Assembly: GCA_964536975.1 (NCBI GenBank)
Contig: CAZHYS010000003.1
Coordinates: 15,419-79,418 of the forward strand
Length of the DNA stretch: 64,000 bases
Source: an uncultured Gammaproteobacteria bacterium
GTDB taxonomy: Bacteria > Patescibacteriota > Patescibacteriia > 2-01-FULL-39-33
Direction of reading: 5' to 3'
Below, piece after piece: positions 7,728 through 53,992 of the stretch (position 1 is the first letter of the stretch; each line of letters begins with the position of its first letter). Position numbers and translations under genes: made by a program. The notes below the pieces were generated by a model that saw only the letters and a program-made list of their open reading frames with translations, was not told the DNA's origin and did no database searches.

Positions 7728-7833
7728 GCCCCCCCTCCTTGTTTGAAGGAGGGGGAAGGGGGGAGGTTTTAAAGTATTAAAATTAGGTTTATTCTAACCC
7801 TCTCCTATCCTCCCCCTTCAGACAAGGGGGAGG
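7728..7833. repeat. two copies of the CCCCTCC...GGAGGGG hairpin repeat
   Basis: Copy 1 is ccccctccttgtttgaaggagggggaaggggggagg. Copy 2 is cctcccccttcagacaagggggagg. Confidence 0.7.
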
Positions 7834-44404: not shown

Positions 44405-44790
44405 CCATTTTCCCTCCCCTTTATAAGGGGAGGGCAGGGAGGGGTATTATCACCCTGTCCGCCTTTATATTACGAACGAGGGAGCCTTTATAATTCTTCC
44501 CCCTCCTTACGAAGGAGGGGGTAGGGGGAGGTCAGATTAATTTATCCCCCCAATTTTTCCTCCCCTTACCAAGGGGAGGAGCCTGCCCTGAGCGAAGCCG
44601 AATGGGTATCTCCCCCCCCCTTGTTCTAAAGAAGGCATCTCTGTTCTTCCCCCTCCTTACGAAGGAGGGGGTAGGGGGAGGTCAGATTAATTTATTTCCA
44701 CCGCCCCCGCCAAAACCGATTACAATTTTGGCGACCCCTCCTTCGGACAAGGAGGGGTAATAAAAATACGAGGGGAGGGTTTTTTATGTG
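44405..44790. repeat. cluster of at least 5 CCTCC hairpin repeats incl. an exact 54-bp duplication (44504-44545 = 44644-44697)
   Basis: Member sequences are ccctcccctttataaggggaggg, ccccctccttacgaaggagggggtagggggagg (twice), cctccccttaccaaggggagg and cccctccttcggacaaggagggg. The shared motif cctgccctgagcgaagccgaatgg is also at 52150 and 57590. Confidence 0.8.
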
Positions 44791-44805
44791 TAATAGATGT
44801 GATTG

Positions 44806-44841
44806 ATCTCCGGAGATGTCTCCATAGATATCTCCGGAGAT
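44806..44841. repeat. left boundary palindrome atctccggagat-gtctccatagat-atctccggagat
   Basis: It contains two perfect 12-bp palindromes. The right-hand counterpart is at 50951-50974. Confidence 0.7.
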
Positions 44842-44910
44842 TTTTAGTTTGACTTTTGGAGCCGAAAGTGGGAAAATTATGGTATTAATTTAATTCTTGT
44901 TTCCAAAATT

Positions 44911-46944
44911 ATGGCAAAAATCTTAGAAATCATCAAAGACTCAAGTTATAATCTTTCAATTTTTGATCAGAAACTGATTGACGAGCTGGAAGGTAAAGTC
45001 ACCACAAAAGACGGCAAATCTTATGTTGTTTGCGCTATCCGAGATAAAGAAATAATTTTGAAGCCGGAGGAGGTTGTCCGCCAGCTCTATGCGATGAAAC
45101 TGCTTGAAGATTACGGCTATCCAAAACAAAGAATCAAATTTGAACACGCAATCCATTTTGGCCGTGAGGTAAAATCTGCCGACATTGTTATTTTTGACAA
45201 AGACCGCCCGACTGTTGAATACATCATTGTTGAAATTAAAAAACCAAAACTCCAAGACGGAAAAAACCAGCTCCGCTCCTACACCAACGCCACTGGTGCG
45301 CCGATTGCCGTTTGGACCAATGGTGGACAAATTTCGCATTACAACCGCAAAGACCCAAATTACTTTGAAGACATTACCGATATTCCAAAAGCCGACCAAA
45401 CGCTTGAAGATATTTTGAAAGAAAGATTTACTCTTAAAGACTTAATCATCAAAGACAAAATCCCGAACGAGGGGAAATCGCTCAAAACCATTATTCAGGA
45501 AATGGAAGATGAAGTTTTGGCAAATGCGGGCGTAGATGTCTTTGAAGAAGTTTTTAAACTTATTTTCACCAAACTGTACGATGAATTACAGAGCAAAAAA
45601 GACAAAATGCGTCTGGAAATTTATCTTGAGGATAAATTAAGCAAAGAAGATCGCGGAGATTATGACAAAGTAAAAGAAATTTTGGCAAAAATTGACGATT
45701 CCAGTTTCAGAGTTTTGGAATTTAGAAACACAGGTCAATCCGAGAGCGAACTAAAAAATAAAATTCAAAAACTTTTTGACGAAGCCAAAGCCAAATGGCC
45801 GGGCGTTTTTGACGAAGCAAGCCAAATTCAGCTTTCGCCCTCTCATCTTTCCGTCAGCGTTTCCAGTTTGCAGGATATAAAACTTTTCAATTCCAATCTG
45901 CAAATCATAGACGAAGCCTTTGAATACTTGGTCAATAAATCATCAAAAGGCGAAAAAGGCCAATACTTCACGCCTCGTCATGTGATTGATATGTGCGTCA
46001 AAATGCTCAATCCGAAAGCTGGCGAATACATGGTAGATACTGCCGCCGGTTCTTGCGGATTTACCGTTCATACGATTTTTCAAATCACCGGACATTTATT
46101 CCAAAACACCGACATTTCCGAGGAAGAAAAAGAAAATGTGCTTAAAGTATTCGGTATTGATTTTGATGAAAAAGTCGTGCGCGTTGCTCGCACTTTAAAC
46201 TTGATCGCCGGAGACGGAAATACCAACGTTTTACATCTCAACAATCTTGATTATGAACGCTGGAATGAATCAATCCAAAATCGCGACTGGCTGGAAGTGT
46301 ACGGAGCGGGATTAAAACGCCTCGAAGCTCTACAAAAAGATAAAAGTTCCTACAAAGAATTTAATTTTGATATTCTCATGGCAAATCCGCCATTTGCCGG
46401 AGACATCAAAGAATCGCGCATAATCCACAAATACGATCTTGGCTACAACGAAAAAAACAAACCAAAATCAAAAGTTGGGCGCGATATTTTGTTTATCGAA
46501 AGAAACTTAAACTTTTTGAAGCCGGGCGGAAGAATGGCGATTGTTTTACCACAAGGCCGTTTTAATAATACTTCTGACAAGGCAATTCGCGAGTATATCG
46601 CCGAAAAAGGCAGAATCCTTGCCGTAGTCGGGCTTCATGTAAACACTTTTAAACCGCACACGGGAACAAAAACCAGCGTGCTTTTTGTGCAGAAATGGGA
46701 CGACAAGCTTTGCCCGAAAGTGGAGGATTATCCGATTTTCTTTGCCGTTTCCGAAAAATCCGGCAAGGACAATTCCGGCGAGTATGTTTTCGTCAAAAAC
46801 GGCAACAATCAGCCGAAACTAGATAAAAATGGGCACTTGATAATCAATCATGACTTGCACAATCACGACGGCGAATTGCCCGACGGCGTAGCGGAAAAGT
46901 TTATTGAATGGGCGAAGTCGGAAAAATTAAGTTTTTGGAAATAA
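44911..46944 (+). CDS. restriction-modification fusion protein: N-terminal PD-(D/E)xK (HsdR_N-like) domain + gamma-class N6-adenine methyltransferase (BcgI-like Type IIB / Type I HsdM-like)
   Basis: It has the nuclease-like motif ADIVIFD...EYIIVEIKKP. The MTase motif I is VDTAAGSCGF and motif IV is NPPF (LMANPPFAG). No HsdR is nearby. Confidence 0.7.
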   Translation: MAKILEIIKDSSYNLSIFDQKLIDELEGKVTTKDGKSYVVCAIRDKEIILKPEEVVRQLYAMKLLEDYGYPKQRIKFEHAIHFGREVKSADIVIFDKDRPTVEYIIVEIKKPKLQDGKNQLRSYTNATGAPIAVWTNGGQISHYNRKDPNYFEDITDIPKADQTLEDILKERFTLKDLIIKDKIPNEGKSLKTIIQEMEDEVLANAGVDVFEEVFKLIFTKLYDELQSKKDKMRLEIYLEDKLSKEDRGDYDKVKEILAKIDDSSFRVLEFRNTGQSESELKNKIQKLFDEAKAKWPGVFDEASQIQLSPSHLSVSVSSLQDIKLFNSNLQIIDEAFEYLVNKSSKGEKGQYFTPRHVIDMCVKMLNPKAGEYMVDTAAGSCGFTVHTIFQITGHLFQNTDISEEEKENVLKVFGIDFDEKVVRVARTLNLIAGDGNTNVLHLNNLDYERWNESIQNRDWLEVYGAGLKRLEALQKDKSSYKEFNFDILMANPPFAGDIKESRIIHKYDLGYNEKNKPKSKVGRDILFIERNLNFLKPGGRMAIVLPQGRFNNTSDKAIREYIAEKGRILAVVGLHVNTFKPHTGTKTSVLFVQKWDDKLCPKVEDYPIFFAVSEKSGKDNSGEYVFVKNGNNQPKLDKNGHLIINHDLHNHDGELPDGVAEKFIEWAKSEKLSFWK

Positions 46945-46970
46945 ATTATAATTTTAAATTACACAATCTT

Positions 46971-48053
46971 ATGAAGAAAAAAAATATTGAAGAATTAAAT
47001 AATGAATTTTTTGAAAAAGAAGATTCTGACGATGAATCTTTAAAACTTAAAGGGCCAATTATTAGTTATGGGGCGGACTACACTCTCGATTCAATTCGAC
47101 AGTACGTAAATGAGAGTAAGCAAATTATTGTACAGCCAAGCTTCCAAAGAAAATTTGTTTGGGATATAAAAAAGGCCAGCAAATTAATAGAATCTTTCAT
47201 TCTTGGTTATCCCGTGCCGAACATTTTGCTTGGGAGAGATCCTGATACTGAGGTCATGGAAGTAATAGATGGCCAGCAGAGAATTTTATCTATATGCGAC
47301 TTCTTTAAGGGCAGATTTAGAGACGAAAAAGTTTTTAAGTTAGCTGGCGATATTGACCAAAAATTTTTAAACAAAACCTTTGACGACCTAGATGAAGCTA
47401 TTCAAAAGAAATTAAGAAACGCGGTTTTGAAGGCTGTGGTCTTTGTCTATCCAAAAGATGACCCAAATATAAAATTTACAGCATTTCAACGTATTAACAC
47501 GGGGAGCGTTGTTTTAAACCAGCAAGAAATCAGAAACTGCATTTATGGGGGATCGTTAAATGATTTACTATTTAAAATAAATGAATACAACGAAGAATGG
47601 AGAGAACTCCTTGCTAAAAAACCGGATAAAAGAATGAAGGATGTAGAAACAATCTTGAGATTTTTTGCCGCTTACTTTAAAGGAAAAGATTATGAAAAGC
47701 CAATCACTAAATTTCTTAACGAATTTATGAATAAGAATAAAAATCTTTCTGAAGAAAAAGGAGCCGAATGGCAAGAATTATTTAACCAAACACTATCTAT
47801 CATTGTAAAAAATATTGGTAGCTCATTTCCCCGCACATCAAAATCAAAAACATTTAATAGAGCAGTTTTTGAATCTGTTATGACCGCCATAGCAGAACTG
47901 AAGAAAGAAAATAGGCTAAAAGTCAAATATTTAAAACGAAACTATACCAAACTAGTAGAAGATCCTAATTATCTTGATTCGGTAACTTCACAAACTTCCG
48001 ACAAGAAAAACTATAAAAACAGGATTGAAATAGCAATTAAAATGCTCTCGTGA
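46971..48053 (+). CDS. DUF262 (ParB/Srx-like NTPase/nuclease superfamily) domain protein
   Basis: The DGQQR motif (VIDGQQRILSI) is present. The ORF track starts at 46908, overlapping the RM gene stop. I use the ATG at 46971. Confidence 0.65.
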   Translation: MKKKNIEELNNEFFEKEDSDDESLKLKGPIISYGADYTLDSIRQYVNESKQIIVQPSFQRKFVWDIKKASKLIESFILGYPVPNILLGRDPDTEVMEVIDGQQRILSICDFFKGRFRDEKVFKLAGDIDQKFLNKTFDDLDEAIQKKLRNAVLKAVVFVYPKDDPNIKFTAFQRINTGSVVLNQQEIRNCIYGGSLNDLLFKINEYNEEWRELLAKKPDKRMKDVETILRFFAAYFKGKDYEKPITKFLNEFMNKNKNLSEEKGAEWQELFNQTLSIIVKNIGSSFPRTSKSKTFNRAVFESVMTAIAELKKENRLKVKYLKRNYTKLVEDPNYLDSVTSQTSDKKNYKNRIEIAIKMLS

Positions 48054-48063
48054 TTTTATATGT

Positions 48064-48624
48064 ATGAACGTTATTTTGGAAAGAAAAAAATATGTTGTTC
48101 GATTACTCGAGAATATAGAGAATTATCCTTCTACCAATCAATTCAAGCAAGAAATGATGACCTTTTCGTATGTTATAGTTTGTGGCGCTATTGAATTTAT
48201 GACAGAAACCATAATACAAGATTGGTTGAGTAAAACAATCAAACATCATAAAAGCTCATCCTACTATCGGGGGAGAAAATATGTTCAATATTTTTTAGAC
48301 ATTCAATCTCAAGCGCGAGAAAAAAATATTGACGATTTTCATAGTACAAACTTAGATAGCATTAGAAATCTTATTAAAGAGATGGCGGGAGAAACAGCGC
48401 GGAATAAATTTAATAACTTGTTTCAAAGTGCTCAAAACACTTTGGCATTGCAGCCGGATTTAAACGAGAGACTTAAACGAATTACCGATACTCGTCATTA
48501 TTTAGCCCACGGACAAAAAGTCCCAAATGATATACAACCCAATGTCCGGGAATTAAGAGAAGATTTTCTTTTTATATACAAGCATATTATAAATAATATC
48601 AAAAAATGTTTACCAAAAGTATAA
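48064..48624 (+). CDS. hypothetical protein, putative HEPN-like (Rx4H motif RHYLAH near C-terminus)
   Basis: It is alpha-helical with a C-terminal R-x4-H motif. It sits between the MTase and S subunit, like the abortive-infection and PrrC-like passengers of Type I loci. Confidence 0.35.
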   Translation: MNVILERKKYVVRLLENIENYPSTNQFKQEMMTFSYVIVCGAIEFMTETIIQDWLSKTIKHHKSSSYYRGRKYVQYFLDIQSQAREKNIDDFHSTNLDSIRNLIKEMAGETARNKFNNLFQSAQNTLALQPDLNERLKRITDTRHYLAHGQKVPNDIQPNVRELREDFLFIYKHIINNIKKCLPKV

Positions 48625-48631
48625 AATAACT

Positions 48632-50050
48632 ATGCAATATTCAGTTGTAAAATTCAAAGGAGTTTTAGTCGATAATGACATATTCAGATTCGATGCTGAT
48701 TATTTTTATCCAAAATCATACAACCTTTATAAAACGATAATAAATAAAAATTTTGCAAGAGTGAAAGAAAGTTTTAATGTTACAAAATTAGCTGGTTTTG
48801 AATACACCAAATATTTTACTGATCCAAATATCAATTCAGACGATTTCTATATTGTTTTAACCAGTAAGAATATTCAAAACGAAGAATTGGTCTTAAATGA
48901 ATATCTTAAAATTGACAAAAAAGTTGCTGACGAATTTTTGAAGCGTTCTAACCTTAAAAAAGGAGATGTTGTTTTGTCATATACTGGGGAATATAGAAGA
49001 GCATTAGTTCTAGAAGAGAACGATTTTCAACTTGGACCAAATATCTGCCTCATTCGTAGCAAAAATAAAAATATCGATTCTTATTATTTATCTACTTTTT
49101 TAAATTCTAACGCTGGTCAGCTTTTACTTGATCGTGAAAAAACACTTTCTGCACAACCTACTGTCGCGATGTCAAGAATAAGAGAAATACCAATTCCGGT
49201 GTTAGATATAGATTTTCAAAATCGAATTGGTGAAATTATTACATCATCAAAAACAAAAAGAAAATCTGCAAACAATCTCTATTTCCAAGCCGAACAATTA
49301 CTCCTTTCCGACTTGGGGCTTTTGGACTGGAAGCCAAAGCACGAACTGGCTTTTGTCAAAAACTTTTCCGCAACACAAGAATCCGAGCGTTTTGACGCAG
49401 AGTATTTTCAACCAAAATACGAGGAAATCGTTGATGCAGTGAAAAAATACAAAGGTGGATTTGATGAATTGGGCAATTTGGTAAAAATCAAAGACAAGAA
49501 TTTTACGCCCAAAGACAACGAGCAATACAAATACATTGAGCTTGCCAACATTTCATCAAACGGCGAAATAAATGGCTACATTGAAAATTTTGGCAATGAA
49601 CTGCCGTCAAGAGCGCGTCGTAAAGTACAAAAAGGCGATCTGATTGTTTCGTCCATTGAAGGATCACTTGAAAGTATTGCTTTAATAACGGAAGACTGGA
49701 AAAACGCTTTATGCTCCACCGGATTTTTTGCTGTCAATTCAGATAAAATTAATTCCGAAACCTTGCTTATTATATTAAAAACAAAAATCGGGCAATTGCA
49801 ACTAAAGAAAGGTTGCAAAGGAACAATTTTAACCGCTATCGGCAAAGAGGAATTGTCCAAAATAGTTTTGCCAAAAATTGATTCAAAAACGCAACAAGAA
49901 ATCAAAAAGAAAATAACTGAGATGTACGAAACGAAAAAATTATCTAAATCATTACTTGAAATTGCCAAGCGAGGCGTGGAAATGGGAATAGAAAAAGACG
50001 AGCAAGAAGCAGAAAAATGGATCAATAAAGAGGTTAAAAAAATTAATTAA
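48632..50050 (+). CDS. hsdS: restriction-modification specificity (S) subunit with two TRDs
   Basis: It has the HsdS/BcgIB-like duplicated target-recognition architecture and conserved spacer helices. Confidence 0.75.
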   Translation: MQYSVVKFKGVLVDNDIFRFDADYFYPKSYNLYKTIINKNFARVKESFNVTKLAGFEYTKYFTDPNINSDDFYIVLTSKNIQNEELVLNEYLKIDKKVADEFLKRSNLKKGDVVLSYTGEYRRALVLEENDFQLGPNICLIRSKNKNIDSYYLSTFLNSNAGQLLLDREKTLSAQPTVAMSRIREIPIPVLDIDFQNRIGEIITSSKTKRKSANNLYFQAEQLLLSDLGLLDWKPKHELAFVKNFSATQESERFDAEYFQPKYEEIVDAVKKYKGGFDELGNLVKIKDKNFTPKDNEQYKYIELANISSNGEINGYIENFGNELPSRARRKVQKGDLIVSSIEGSLESIALITEDWKNALCSTGFFAVNSDKINSETLLIILKTKIGQLQLKKGCKGTILTAIGKEELSKIVLPKIDSKTQQEIKKKITEMYETKKLSKSLLEIAKRGVEMGIEKDEQEAEKWINKEVKKIN

Positions 50051-50053
50051 CAT

Positions 50054-50950
50054 ATGTCCACCTACTACAACCCAAACAGAGACGCCTCTTGGAACTATGG
50101 CGGAAATAATTGGAAATTAAGCCGGTCAAAGATTGATTTGTTTTTGGAATGTCCAAGATGTTTTTATTTGGATAATAAACTCGGCACAAAGCGAGTGCCC
50201 GGATTCCCTTTTTCTATAAATAGCGCGGTGGATTATCTTTTAAAGCAGGAGTTTGATTCCTATCGTGTTAAAAACGAACAACATCCACTTCAAAAAGAAT
50301 ATGGTATAGATGCTCGGCCAATGTCGCACGCCGAGCTGGATGAATGGCGGCGGAATTTTGGCGGCGTCAGATATCTGCACGAACCGACCGGACTGTTGGT
50401 GACCGGCGCGATTGATGATTTGTGGGTGACTATCCCTCCCACCTCCCCTAGCCCCTCCTCGGGCAGGAGGGGAAAGTTAGAATATTCGGCAAACCCCTCT
50501 GTGTCTCCCCTTGGAAAGGGGAGAAAGTCAGAAGATTTGGCAAACCTCTCCGCGTCTCTCCTTGGAAAGGGGGGAAAGTTTGAGCCGGAATGTATTGTGG
50601 TTGATTATAAAGCTACAGCCAAAGATGAGGCCGTAAAGGAATTAGATAAAGAGTGGCAAGATGGCTACAAACGGCAAATGGAGGTGTACCAGTGGCTACT
50701 GCGGAAAAATGGTTTGAAAGTCTCTGATGTTGGTTATTTTGTTTATTGCACCGGCAAAATGGATCGCCAGGCTTTTGACAAGAAGATTGAATTTGATGTT
50801 AATTTAATTGAACATAGAGGTGATGATTCTTGGGTAGAGAAAACTCTTTTTGACATCAAGAAGTGTCTGGACGGCGACGTCATCCCGAAGTCTGGCAAAA
50901 GTTGTGATTGGTGCGCTTATTTCGCGGCCAGAAAAAAATCAGAAAAATAA
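50054..50950 (+). CDS. Cas4-like / RecB-family PD-(D/E)xK nuclease with 4-Cys cluster, carrying an in-frame insertion of CCTCC hairpin repeats
   Basis: The N-terminal CPRCFY and C-terminal CDWCAY form a CxxC pair. The core reads IVVDYK and the QxxxY-like motif is MEVYQWLL. The inserted repeats lie at 50440-50590 inside the frame. Confidence 0.55.
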   Translation: MSTYYNPNRDASWNYGGNNWKLSRSKIDLFLECPRCFYLDNKLGTKRVPGFPFSINSAVDYLLKQEFDSYRVKNEQHPLQKEYGIDARPMSHAELDEWRRNFGGVRYLHEPTGLLVTGAIDDLWVTIPPTSPSPSSGRRGKLEYSANPSVSPLGKGRKSEDLANLSASLLGKGGKFEPECIVVDYKATAKDEAVKELDKEWQDGYKRQMEVYQWLLRKNGLKVSDVGYFVYCTGKMDRQAFDKKIEFDVNLIEHRGDDSWVEKTLFDIKKCLDGDVIPKSGKSCDWCAYFAARKKSEK

Positions 50951-50974
50951 ATCTCCGGAGACATCTCCGGAGAT
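50951..50974. repeat. right boundary palindrome atctccggagac-atctccggagat
   Basis: It matches the left boundary at 44806-44841. Confidence 0.7.
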
Positions 50975-51058
50975 CGCCAGTTGATTTTTGGTGAATAATG
51001 TGAAAAGATTATAATTGGTAAGAATACAATTAATATATTGGTCGGTGATATTTTAATT

Positions 51059-51559
51059 ATGCATGACAAAGAAAAAAATTACGCTTTTATTGATAGCCAA
51101 AATCTGAACCTGGGAATTCAGAGCTTGGGGTGGAAGTTGGATTACAAAAGATTTAGGATTTATTTGCGGGAGAAGTATGGCGTTGAAGTTGCCTATTTGT
51201 TTATTGGCTATATACCAGGAAATCAGGATTTATATTCATCGCTTCAATCTTGCGGGTATGTTTTGGTTTTCAAGCCGACCATTCCCGATCAGAATGGAAA
51301 TATAAAAGGAAATGTTGATGCCGACTTGGTTTTGCAGGCGTTATTGGATTATGAAAAATATGACAAGGCAGTTATCATCACAAGCGATGGAGATTTTTAT
51401 TCTTTGGTTAAATACTTATATCGGCAGGGCAAATTAAAATTTGTCATGAGCCCATATATCAAAACTTGTTCCATATTGCTCAAGAAAACAGCACAAGAAA
51501 GAATTATTTTTATGGATAATCTAGAGAAAAAACTTAGTTATAATAAAAAACACCGCTAA
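51059..51559 (+). CDS. NYN/LabA-like PIN-fold domain protein (putative RNase)
   Basis: It has YAFIDSQNL, DADLV and ITSDGDF motifs typical of NYN domains. Confidence 0.6.
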   Translation: MHDKEKNYAFIDSQNLNLGIQSLGWKLDYKRFRIYLREKYGVEVAYLFIGYIPGNQDLYSSLQSCGYVLVFKPTIPDQNGNIKGNVDADLVLQALLDYEKYDKAVIITSDGDFYSLVKYLYRQGKLKFVMSPYIKTCSILLKKTAQERIIFMDNLEKKLSYNKKHR

Positions 51560-51670
51560 GGGATGAGGCCCGTAGAGGTATTTTTTATGTGTATTCTGAT
51601 TGTATTATAAAGCGTTTTATAAACTTTGTCAATAGCGGTAAATATTATTAAAATTAAACAATCAAATTCC

Positions 51671-51889
51671 ATGCGAAAATTGGAAAAACAAAACATCCGC
51701 AAGCTCGGCAAGACCGGCCGCGGCGCCAGCATCACCATCACCCTGCCGATTGAAATCATTCGTGATTTAAAATGGCGCGACGGCCAAAATGTTGTGGTCA
51801 CTCGGCGCGGTCAAGGAATCGCGATCAGCGACTGGCCGGCCTCCGCTAAAGCTTCGGCGAGCCGAGGGAAACCGCAAAATAAAAAATAA
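51671..51889 (+). CDS. small AbrB/MazE/SpoVT-like DNA-binding protein
   Basis: The sequence GKTGRGASITITLPIEIIRDLKWRDGQNVVV resembles the swapped-hairpin barrel. Confidence 0.4.
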   Translation: MRKLEKQNIRKLGKTGRGASITITLPIEIIRDLKWRDGQNVVVTRRGQGIAISDWPASAKASASRGKPQNKK

Positions 51890-51962
51890 TATTTTGTAAA
51901 TATAAGAAGTTATTGCATGCCCTTATTCGCGCGAATAGGAGAATAAGAAATATTTATATTTA

Positions 51963-52322
51963 GACCTCCCCTACCTCCTTCTCGTATTTTTATTACCCCT
52001 CATTGTTTGAAGGAGGGGTCGTCAAAATTGTAATCAGTTTGATTTTTCCTCCCCCTTGTTTGAAGGGGGAGGACAGGAGGGGGTGAAAAAATATTAATTA
52101 GACCTCCCCTTACCCCCTCCTTCAGACAAGGAGGGGGAAAAGATGCCAGCTCGGCTTCGCTCAGGGCAGGCTCCCTCCTCCATCCGCCAAAGGCGGACAA
52201 ATGGACAAGGAGGGGGAATAAATCCTGTATCTTTCCCTACCCCCCCCTCACCCCTAATTTTTAGCCCCTAACCCCTAATCGTTAAACGCTAACAGCTAAT
52301 CGCTAATTGCTAATCCCTGTCC
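51963..52322. repeat. cluster of CCTCC hairpin repeats + ctaatcgctaattgcta word repeats (left flank of helicase gene)
   Basis: There are at least 4 hairpin copies, and ccctaacccctaatcgttaaacgctaacagctaatcgctaattgctaatcc runs up to the ATG. Confidence 0.75.
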
Positions 52323-52324
52323 AA

Positions 52325-53992
52325 ATGACCCAAAACGAAGCGTTGGAAATTTTGAAGCTCGGCCACAATGTTTATCTCACCGGTTCGGCCGGCAGTGGCA
52401 AGACATATTTGCTCAACAAGTATGTCGGTTTTTTGAAATCCGCCGGCGCGTCAATCGGCATCACCGCTTCCACCGGCATTGCCGCCAGCCACATCGGCGG
52501 CGTCACCATTCATTCCTGGGCCGGCATCGGCATCAAGGATCGGTTGTCAAAAGGCGATCTCTCCGACTTGCGGCGCAACAACCGAGTGCATCATCGGCTG
52601 GCCAAGGCTGCGGTTCTTATTATTGACGAAATATCAATGCTGGATGCCAAGCGGCTGGATTTGGCGGATATAGTTTGCCGCCGGCTGCGTGAAGACGACC
52701 GGCCGTTCGGCGGCTTGCAAGTGGTGTTGTGCGGCGATTTTTTCCAGCTCCCGCCGGTGAACCGCGGCCCGGGAAAAACCGATTTCGCCCCCGCCTCGGC
52801 GGCTTGGCAAGAATTGGATTTGAAAGTCTGCTATCTGACCGAACAGCATCGCCAGACCGATGACGGCTTTTTGAAAGTTCTAAACGACATCCGCTCCGGC
52901 CTCGCCAATGACGAGACCAAAAAGATTTTAGCCAGCCGGCAGGATCGCGAACCGGCTGGCGATGTTTTTGCCACCAAGCTTTATTCGCACAATTTCAATG
53001 TTGACGCGGTTAATGATTTTCATCTGGCGCAAATAGACGAAGAATCAAGAGTGTATCCGATGTCCGGCTACGGCTCTCATCGGCTGATCGCCGATTTGAA
53101 AAAGAGCTGTCTGGCCAAGGAAGACTTGGAGCTCAAAGAGGGCGCCGCCGTGATGTTTGTCAAAAATAATTTTGAAGAGGGCTACACCAACGGCACGCTC
53201 GGAACGGTGGTCGGCTTTGACGAAGGGAGCGGTTATCCGGTAGTGCGGATAAAATCCGGCCGGAAAATAATCGCCTCGCCGGTTTCTTGGGCGTATGAAT
53301 TGGACGGCGAGGTGATAGCGGTCATCCGCCAGGTTCCCCTGCGATTGGCTTGGGCGATTACCATTCATAAGAGCCAAGGCATGAGCTTGGACGCGGCGGA
53401 AATTGATTTGAGCCGATCATTTGAACGGGGGATGGGCTATGTCGCCCTCTCGCGCGTGCGGTCGCTCTCCGGCATCAAGCTGCTCGGCCTCAATGATTTG
53501 GCGATCAGGGTAAACGAAGAAATACTTCGGCTGGATCAGGATTTGATGGCGCAATCGGAAACGCTCGCGGCCCAGATGCGTGCGGCTGATGGGGCGGAAA
53601 TCGGGGCGAGGCAGGCCGCTTTTTTGCGCGCCATTTCCTCGGCCGATGGGGAGAACAAAGGGGAGAGCAAAAAGGCTTCGCCCAAAAAAGCCAAAGGCGA
53701 AACATACCAAGAGACGAAAAAATTGGTGTTGCAAAAAATGTCCCTTGCCGATATGGCCGCCGCTCGCGGCCTGGTTGAGGGGACGATCATCAGCCATTTG
53801 GAAAAATTGTCGGCCGGCGACAAGCAGCTGGACTTAGATTATTTGCGGCCGGACAGTGATCGATTGGAAACGATCGGGGCGGCGTTTAAAAGGACTGGCG
53901 ACATCGCCCTGGCGCCGGTCCGCGATCTGCTTGGCGAGGATTTTTCTTTTGAGGAATTGCGTTTGGCCAGATTGGTTTTGCGCTTGCTTTAG
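52325..53992 (+). CDS. PIF1/RecD-family (AAA_30) ATP-dependent DNA helicase
   Basis: It has the Walker A motif GSAGSGKT, motif II LIIDEISM, and a C-terminal Pif1 2B/HTH-like region. Confidence 0.75.
   Translation: MTQNEALEILKLGHNVYLTGSAGSGKTYLLNKYVGFLKSAGASIGITASTGIAASHIGGVTIHSWAGIGIKDRLSKGDLSDLRRNNRVHHRLAKAAVLIIDEISMLDAKRLDLADIVCRRLREDDRPFGGLQVVLCGDFFQLPPVNRGPGKTDFAPASAAWQELDLKVCYLTEQHRQTDDGFLKVLNDIRSGLANDETKKILASRQDREPAGDVFATKLYSHNFNVDAVNDFHLAQIDEESRVYPMSGYGSHRLIADLKKSCLAKEDLELKEGAAVMFVKNNFEEGYTNGTLGTVVGFDEGSGYPVVRIKSGRKIIASPVSWAYELDGEVIAVIRQVPLRLAWAITIHKSQGMSLDAAEIDLSRSFERGMGYVALSRVRSLSGIKLLGLNDLAIRVNEEILRLDQDLMAQSETLAAQMRAADGAEIGARQAAFLRAISSADGENKGESKKASPKKAKGETYQETKKLVLQKMSLADMAAARGLVEGTIISHLEKLSAGDKQLDLDYLRPDSDRLETIGAAFKRTGDIALAPVRDLLGEDFSFEELRLARLVLRLL

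Follow-up and report, generated by a model that had tools for sequence, protein, structure and literature searches.

A Divergent PD-T4-2-Like DUF262-HEPN Gene Pair Nested in a Restriction-Modification-Like Operon

The Gene Pair and Its Setting

Two adjacent genes are the subject of this analysis. They lie in a 64,000-nucleotide stretch of contig CAZHYS010000003.1 (GenBank assembly GCA_964536975.1, positions 15,419 to 79,418), which was deposited under the name of an uncultured Gammaproteobacteria bacterium and has a GTDB lineage in the Patescibacteriota; the whole stretch is called the window below. The first gene encodes a DUF262 protein of 360 amino acids (aa) and the second a 186-aa HEPN protein, and both sit between a gene for a DNA methyltransferase (M) and one for a specificity (S) subunit, in an operon resembling those of restriction-modification (R-M) systems (Table 1). 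Domain identities, motif conservation, obligate gene adjacency, and family membership could all be observed for the pair, and by these sequence measures it is a divergent member of the PD-T4-2 family, that is, a new copy of a system that has already been described.

A first-pass annotation, made from the sequence alone, had located the two open reading frames (ORFs) between the M and S genes, and its coordinates match ours, including the start of the DUF262 gene at 46971. An alternative, longer DUF262 ORF begins at 46908 and overlaps the M gene; the start at 46971 is preferred because gene calls on two independent assemblies agree on it and because M1 is invariant in the alignment of homologues. 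The first five genes, from M to a gene for a PD-(D/E)XK nuclease, are all on the + strand and are separated by gaps of 26, 10, 7, and 3 nt, from which we infer that the DUF262 and HEPN genes are co-transcribed with M and S.

Domains and Motifs of the Two Proteins

The DUF262 protein has GmrSD_N as its sole Pfam domain (7e-29), and Pfam detected no DUF1524/HNH or other nuclease domain in it. The motifs QRKFVW at position 59, DGQQR at 100, and FQRIN at 172 are present, and the corresponding patterns QRxxxW, DGxQR, and FxxxN are invariant across the homologue alignment, so the first-pass identification of a DUF262 protein with a DGQQR motif is borne out. An AlphaFold2 model (predicted local distance difference test [pLDDT] score of 84) has a ParB/sulfiredoxin-like N-terminal domain followed by a helical C-terminal domain, and its best solved structural matches are BrxU and SspE. 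Li et al. (2025) described the same two-domain layout as a ParB-DUF262 domain joined to a DNA-binding "ParBDB" domain, and they treated it as a sensor. Among the PADLOC models, PD-T4-2_A (PDLC04027) matches the protein at 4e-60, with residues 6-359 aligned to profile positions 7-361 of 363. PDB sequence searches with the DUF262 protein returned no match, and NCBIfam returned none for either member of the pair.

Pfam HEPN_RiboL-PSP (PF18735) covers the whole of the 186-aa protein and scores 33 bits, above its cutoff of 28.4. The protein contains a single Rx4H motif, RHYLAH at 144-149, and both R144 and H149 are fully conserved among 18 close homologues. Modeled as a monomer by AlphaFold2 with those 18 homologues, the protein is all helical (pLDDT 84; predicted template modeling score 0.80), and the closest solved folds are HEPN toxins of toxin-antitoxin systems (5yep, 8xdj, and 7ae2). 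It thus combines the two hallmarks of the HEPN superfamily, a helical HEPN fold and an Rx4-6H motif in which a polar residue follows the arginine. Other searches were less informative: a PDB search with the HEPN family profile retrieved designed helical proteins only, and a Foldseek comparison of the model with viral structures gave nothing below E = 0.5. Profile searches and structure modeling, both of which the first-pass annotation had proposed as checks, therefore agree with its call of a HEPN protein with a C-terminal Rx4H motif, as they do with its DUF262 call.

This HEPN protein belongs to a rare subclade of longer proteins (185-193 aa) that form 19 clusters at 90% identity. An exhaustive profile search started from the subclade recovered 13 representatives from 1.84 billion proteins and stopped short of the wider partner family described below. 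Those relatives of the protein or of the pair that bear an organism name come from metagenome-assembled genomes of Patescibacteria, i.e., the candidate phyla radiation (CPR).

A Conserved Pair across Bacteria and Archaea

When one genome per species was scanned, relatives of the DUF262 protein turned up in 444 genomes, and the best 80 loci were taken for the study of gene context. In 86 of 87 loci, from Bacteria and Archaea, a HEPN-type ORF of 150-200 aa begins about -41 to +27 nt from the DUF262 stop codon; the single locus without a downstream partner is interrupted by the end of its contig. These downstream ORFs and the 186-aa protein from the window form one family after a single profile iteration, and PF18735 matches 78/80 of the partners, while PF18737 also matches 23/80. 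When the HEPN clade of the window was compared by hhalign with 47 other partners, including those of E. coli plasmid and prophage copies, the two profiles matched with a probability of 97.1% (E 5e-11), and the alignment superimposed a conserved glutamate and an R-H-x-x-A-H-G segment.

The predicted catalytic columns are conserved in this broader set too. Among 83 partners, 81 have the residue equivalent to H149 (the two exceptions are truncated ORFs), 78 have E44, and R144 is an arginine in 68 and a lysine in 13; the conserved signature reads E...[RK][NH]xxxH. The histidine is thus retained in 81/83 partners and a basic residue replaces or preserves the arginine in 81/83, which upholds the Arg/His conservation expected by the first-pass annotation. 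The lysine variant, K-N-x-x-A-H-G, is an unusual form of the Rx4H signature and occurs at L009, L010, L011, L013, L014, L031, L039, L042, L043, L047, L067, L068, and L080, several of which are archaeal and CPR genomes.

Copies of the pair in E. coli were recovered by blastn of E. coli genomes with a Marinomonas homologue. The DUF262 protein of the window is 35% identical over its full length to that of an E. coli plasmid copy (8e-60), the HEPN partners of the E. coli variants match PF18735 (about 1e-13), and RefSeq labels the two consecutive genes as "GmrSD/DUF262 domain-containing protein" and "HEPN domain-containing protein." There are at least two such E. coli variants (L093:3825-5465, L094:3825-5465, and L095:5859-7575), which reside on plasmids of ~40-150 kb or in a lambdoid prophage between capsid genes, with no R-M genes at those sites.

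One relative departs from the usual organization. At L097:6404-8010, where the DUF262 protein is 52% identical to that of the window, a 107-aa ORF without a Pfam match lies 225 nt downstream in place of a HEPN gene, and the HEPN partner may have decayed there.

Comparison with Known Systems

The closest described system is PD-T4-2 of E. coli ECOR65, which Vassallo et al. (2022) listed as "DUF262, HEPN" and found to be active against phage T4. Those authors validated it in E. coli K-12 from a 1.8-kb clone carrying just the two genes (338141-339964 of ECOR65 contig QOYX01000002) and also by deletion in the native strain ECOR65. Their HHpred analysis assigned PD-T4-2A to PF03235 and PD-T4-2B to PF18735 HEPN_RiboL-PSP (97.8%), followed by PF18737, and Mariano and Blower (2023) listed the system under both DUF262 and PF18735. 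The pair in the window shares this plan: a two-gene operon in which a DUF262 (PF03235) protein of ~360 aa is followed by a HEPN protein of ~160-190 aa (PF18735), with no DNA nuclease domain in either protein. It differs in that its HEPN protein belongs to the rare, longer subclade and misses the PADLOC PD-T4-2_B models, and in that it is nested in an R-M-like operon, whereas the retrieved E. coli copies lie on plasmids or in a prophage.

An earlier record of the same association comes from Anantharaman et al. (2013), who noted "Ribo L-PSP-HEPN ... operon with ParB" and a link between the MAE_28990 HEPN family and DNA methylase genes. The HEPN family and the linkage to a ParB (DUF262) gene are the same as in the window; however, that account was computational and defined no system or phenotype. 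The first-pass annotation had not recognized the pair as a described system, a view that does not hold in light of the 2013 and 2022 reports. Its idea that a sensor NTPase and a HEPN effector make up a defense module fares better and is supported.

Several other systems share parts with the pair. Menshen (NsnABC) has an A component, NsnA, with the same DUF262 plus helical C-domain architecture, and its PADLOC model matches the DUF262 protein over its full length (1.5e-67). An R-M neighborhood is also common to the two, as Menshen loci occur near BREX and type I and III R-M systems in 27.9% of cases (Li et al. 2025). Menshen was nevertheless rejected: only the A component matches, and PADLOC detected no NsnB ATPase or NsnC effector among the neighboring genes. 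GmrSD, BrxU, and SspE, which are type IV-like DUF262-DUF1524 proteins, share the DUF262 NTPase fold and motifs. Unlike them, the pair has no DUF1524/HNH DNase domain and its effector would be a separate HEPN protein, and therefore RNA rather than DNA is the predicted target.

The Host Operon and Its Enzymes

The M protein matches HSDR_N_2 (8e-27) and N6_Mtase (3e-34) in Pfam and MTase_I in PADLOC (1e-288). It has an NPPF motif at residue 492 and an intact N-terminal PD-(D/E)XK motif (E53/E54, D91, and E108-x-K110), and its best solved relative is RM.BsaXI (8.5e-17), a type IIB enzyme whose S subunit is a protein of its own. The S subunit matches many further PADLOC S models besides Specificity_I. 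No HsdR was found among the examined members of the 33 ORFs of at least 250 aa in the window; the large ORFs examined encode ValRS, PNPase, PPDK, a lipase-like protein, and pyruvate kinase. A classical type I R-M system was rejected for the operon on the grounds that no HsdR was found and that M has, in its place, an HSDR_N_2 domain.

The M and S genes and the two genes nested between them also recall the MADS system (mad1-8), in which MAD2 is an M protein with an N-terminal HSDR_N domain and MAD5 an S protein. MADS itself was rejected, as M scores 296.9 bits on the NCBIfam MAD2 model (cutoff 720), S scores 110.5 bits on the MAD5 model (cutoff 400), MAD3/4 are absent, and PADLOC found no mandatory MAD6-8.

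Restriction-Modification Neighborhoods of the Pair

Gene context was compared between a close clade, comprising 13 independent contexts in which the DUF262 protein is 51-81% identical to that of the window, and a wider family at 35-44% identity. R-M genes adjoin the pair in 9/13 close-clade contexts, so the co-occurrence with R-M systems elsewhere that the first-pass annotation anticipated does exist. The systems concerned are of unrelated types. At L003, L088, and L096, the pair is flanked by Mod and Res of type III systems, and at L005, where the upstream side is truncated, it directly precedes Res; it directly follows type II systems at L006 (HaeII plus Vsr), L008 (Tsp45I), L089 (HinfI), and L092 (NgoFVII); and in the window it lies between M and S. 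Adjacent R-M genes are absent in the remaining four contexts (the P0012 contig, L090, L091, and L097). In the wider family, the two upstream neighbors are mostly housekeeping genes, and a DNA methyltransferase lies within three genes in about 7/79 loci according to a seeded profile search, which may miss methyltransferase classes without a seed.

Two of these loci contain further elements. At L092:1324-8663, the pair and the NgoFVII-type R-M system adjoin genes for a Rep protein, a Zot-like ATPase, and an integrase, a combination suggestive of an inovirus-like integrative element. At L088:4901-8727, the type III operon that holds the pair contains a nested AbiEii gene as well.

Together, the neighborhoods suggest that the cassette is autonomous, with a tendency to nest in R-M operons but without a particular enzyme as its guard. 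Autonomy is favored because the neighboring R-M types are unrelated, because the linkage is optional, and because PD-T4-2 works from a two-gene clone. The nesting fits the "embedded defence" pattern outlined by Payne et al. (2024).

Proposed Function and Alternatives

We propose, with good though incomplete confidence, that the two genes form an anti-phage cassette of the PD-T4-2 family that works autonomously and is nested in an R-M-like operon acquired by horizontal transfer. Transcribed together with M and S, the two genes would supply a sensor and an effector. The 360-aa DUF262 NTPase would recognize some property of invading DNA, perhaps modifications that place it beyond the reach of ordinary R-M enzymes, and NTP hydrolysis by this sensor would turn on the 186-aa HEPN partner. 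The partner would then dimerize to build its Rx4H active site, cut RNA, and stop phage growth, with abortive infection as the likely outcome; the trigger, the RNA target, and the fate of the cell are all inferred. GmrSD and SspE recognize modified DNA, and the DNA of T4, the phage on which PD-T4-2 was selected, is modified. The proposed sensing of modified DNA draws on the precedents of GmrSD, BrxU, and SspE and on the activity of PD-T4-2 against T-even phages. The R-M genes would be neighbors of the pair, probably complementary defenses and not its regulators.

Several observations weigh against this explanation. The DUF262 protein scores slightly better on NsnA of Menshen than on PD-T4-2_A. 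The PADLOC PD-T4-2_B models fail to detect the 186-aa protein even at E = 10, a threshold at which PADLOC gave weak Cas13-ApeA matches only, and the protein is 19% identical to its E. coli counterpart (E 8e-4), albeit with the motifs aligned. Also, the E. coli copies used for comparison are plasmid and prophage variants other than the PD-T4-2 of ECOR65. R-M adjacency is strongly enriched in the close clade (9/13 versus about 7/79; Fisher p = 7e-6, uncorrected for phylogeny). Finally, every step of the mechanism is drawn by analogy because the searchable literature yielded no biochemical account of how PD-T4-2 works. Regarding the second point, the two PD-T4-2_B models match just 11 and 4 of 80 partners, and two E. 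coli plasmid partners and two gammaproteobacterial partners likewise miss them. We attribute the miss to narrow models because these four other tested partners share it, and current defense-system models seem, from these profile comparisons, to under-detect the DUF262-HEPN family.

The enrichment near R-M genes raises the question of whether the cassette is functionally wired to R-M in the Patescibacteria-associated clade. By this account, the pair in the window would be the effector arm of an HsdR-less M-plus-S system with a MADS-like logic, and in general the DUF262 protein would read methylation or restriction status and fire the HEPN RNase when restriction fails. Such wiring would explain why 9/13 close relatives immediately follow an R-M gene that has the same orientation, versus about 10% in the wider family. 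We consider it unlikely.

A narrower version, in which the DUF262-HEPN pair, perhaps with the PD-(D/E)XK protein, acts against DNA that lacks the M/S methyl mark and fills the mad3-mad4 slot between mad2 and mad5, is decidedly unlikely. M and S are indeed closest to MAD2 and MAD5, both below cutoff; the two genes between the M and S genes of MADS are required for defense; no HsdR was found in the window; and Li et al. (2025) raised the same idea for Menshen loci linked to nuclease-less methylases. However, the mandatory MAD6-8 are absent, and M, with its intact PD-(D/E)XK motif and a type IIB enzyme, BsaXI, as its nearest solved relative, may restrict DNA alone. Moreover, the same cassette accompanies complete type II and type III systems and also occurs alone, and a HEPN RNase would be an odd effector for a check of DNA methylation.

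The first-pass annotation had itself suggested guarding in the manner of PrrC, whereby the HEPN RNase would be held latent on the M/S complex and freed when a phage anti-restriction protein attacks that complex. The nesting between M and S with probable co-transcription, the R-M adjacency in the close clade against roughly 10% in the wider family, and the precedent of PrrC (PMC3014915) all speak for it, and PrrC-EcoprrI is likewise a HEPN-superfamily RNase that, along with an NTPase, is encoded within an R-M operon. The comparison fails in other respects, though. PrrC is a single ABC-ATPase-HEPN fusion that is always tied to type Ic R-M, whereas the NTPase in the window is a separate protein of the ParB type whose linkage to R-M is optional and of mixed type. 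The prr order in E. coli is hsdM-hsdS-prrC-hsdR (PMC3014915), so PrrC itself is flanked by hsdS and hsdR; the first-pass annotation had wrongly placed it between hsdM and hsdS. A conserved protein-protein mask is unlikely because the adjacent systems (type I/IIB-like M plus S, type III Mod/Res, HaeII, HinfI, NgoFVII, and Tsp45I) are unrelated. Four close relatives and most distant ones have no adjacent R-M genes at all, PD-T4-2 defends from its two-gene clone, and the pair has its own NTPase sensor, which PrrC-type masking would not need. An R-M-guarded nuclease of the PrrC type was rejected as a class for the lack of an ABC ATPase and of an HsdR in the window and for the variable R-M linkage, and we regard the guard model as very improbable.

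The proposal that the HEPN protein is a toxin, with the DUF262 protein as its antitoxin, and that the two mainly stabilize a mobile island and do not chiefly defend against phage is consistent with the toxin-like solved folds, the low GC content and flanking inverted repeats of the island, and the presence of relatives on plasmids and integrative elements, but it is the hardest to credit, since known HEPN antitoxins are MNT nucleotidyltransferases and not 360-aa NTPases with conserved catalytic motifs, and anti-phage activity has been measured for an E. coli member of the family, in its native strain included.

An autonomous cassette of the PD-T4-2 family has implications beyond this locus. 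A system validated in E. coli has a conserved two-gene core across Bacteria and Archaea, with relatives of its DUF262 protein in 444 species genomes and a partner at nearly every locus examined, and the rare HEPN subclade identified here has its organism-named members in candidate-phyla-radiation bacteria. By nesting repeatedly in R-M operons (type I-like, II, and III), the cassette provides a clear illustration of "embedded" defense genes and poses the question of whether the DUF262-HEPN module complements R-M by catching the phages that R-M misses. For annotation, such genes are better labeled PD-T4-2-like than hypothetical.

The Island and Additional Observations

The pair and its operon lie in a seven-gene island (44773-51980) with a GC content of 0.369, compared with 0.478 and 0.482 in the flanks. 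Inverted repeats bracket the island (Table 1), and a 23-mer is found at both of its ends and nowhere else. In the favored explanation, this R-M-like operon would have been acquired horizontally. Neither an integrase nor a transposase gene was seen with the island, and there is no tRNA and no Rfam family in or around it; therefore, no RNA antitoxin or tRNA integration site is evident.

Table 1. Features of the island and its boundaries, in window coordinates
Feature	Coordinates	Strand	Description
Left arm of inverted repeats bracketing the island	44456-44772	.	Best segment 60 nt at 92%, plus three further collinear arms
Upstream control region, candidate	44805-44877	+	Two ATCTCCGGAGAT palindromes (44806, 44830), then a promoter-like site with TTGACT at 44849 and GAAAAT ending at 44877
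DNA methyltransferase (M) gene	44911-46944	+	677 aa; HSDR_N_2 + N6_Mtase (Pfam); operon gene 1
DUF262 gene, PD-T4-2_A-like predicted sensor	46971-48053	+	360 aa; ParB/Srx-fold NTPase N-domain + helical C-domain (NsnA-C/"ParBDB"-like)
HEPN gene, PD-T4-2_B-like putative effector	48064-48624	+	186 aa; RiboL-PSP-HEPN family, predicted RNase
Specificity (S) subunit gene	48632-50050	+	472 aa; PADLOC Specificity_I 1.5e-33; operon gene 4
Cas4-like PD-(D/E)XK nuclease gene	50054-50950	+	Pfam PDDEXK_1 3e-11; operon gene 5
NYN-domain (LabA-like) protein gene	51038-51559	+	87-nt gap after PD-(D/E)XK gene; within island
Right arm of inverted repeats bracketing the island	51981-52199	.	Pairs with left arm

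The 12-nt palindrome ATCTCCGGAGAT occurs in 3 copies in the 64 kb, versus 0.01 expected. Two copies are in the candidate control region upstream of M, and the third, at 50963, comes just after the PD-(D/E)XK gene (region 50951-50974). The palindrome may mark the limits of the five-gene operon as an operator or terminator. Promoter-like and terminator-like sites are no commoner here than in shuffled sequence.

Other repeats were observed as well. The PD-(D/E)XK gene contains three tandem, in-frame, G-rich copies of a 51-nt (17-codon) unit at 50462-50614, which add an insert rich in Pro, Ser, Gly, and Lys to the protein. G-rich intergenic hairpins of the form CCCTCCTT-N5-AAGGAGGG, resembling repetitive extragenic palindromes, are found at 7733, 39366, 41162, 44736, 51997, 52115, and 62602 (7 matches versus 0.02 expected), and longer, 52-nt G-rich hairpin units lie at 44494-44545 and 44644-44695. 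An 87-aa ORF in the island (51626-51889) has a weak, below-cutoff MazE/AbrB-like match in Pfam (E 0.0019), and just outside the right repeat a gene at 52307-53992 encodes a PIF1-like helicase with a C-terminal HTH_40 domain.

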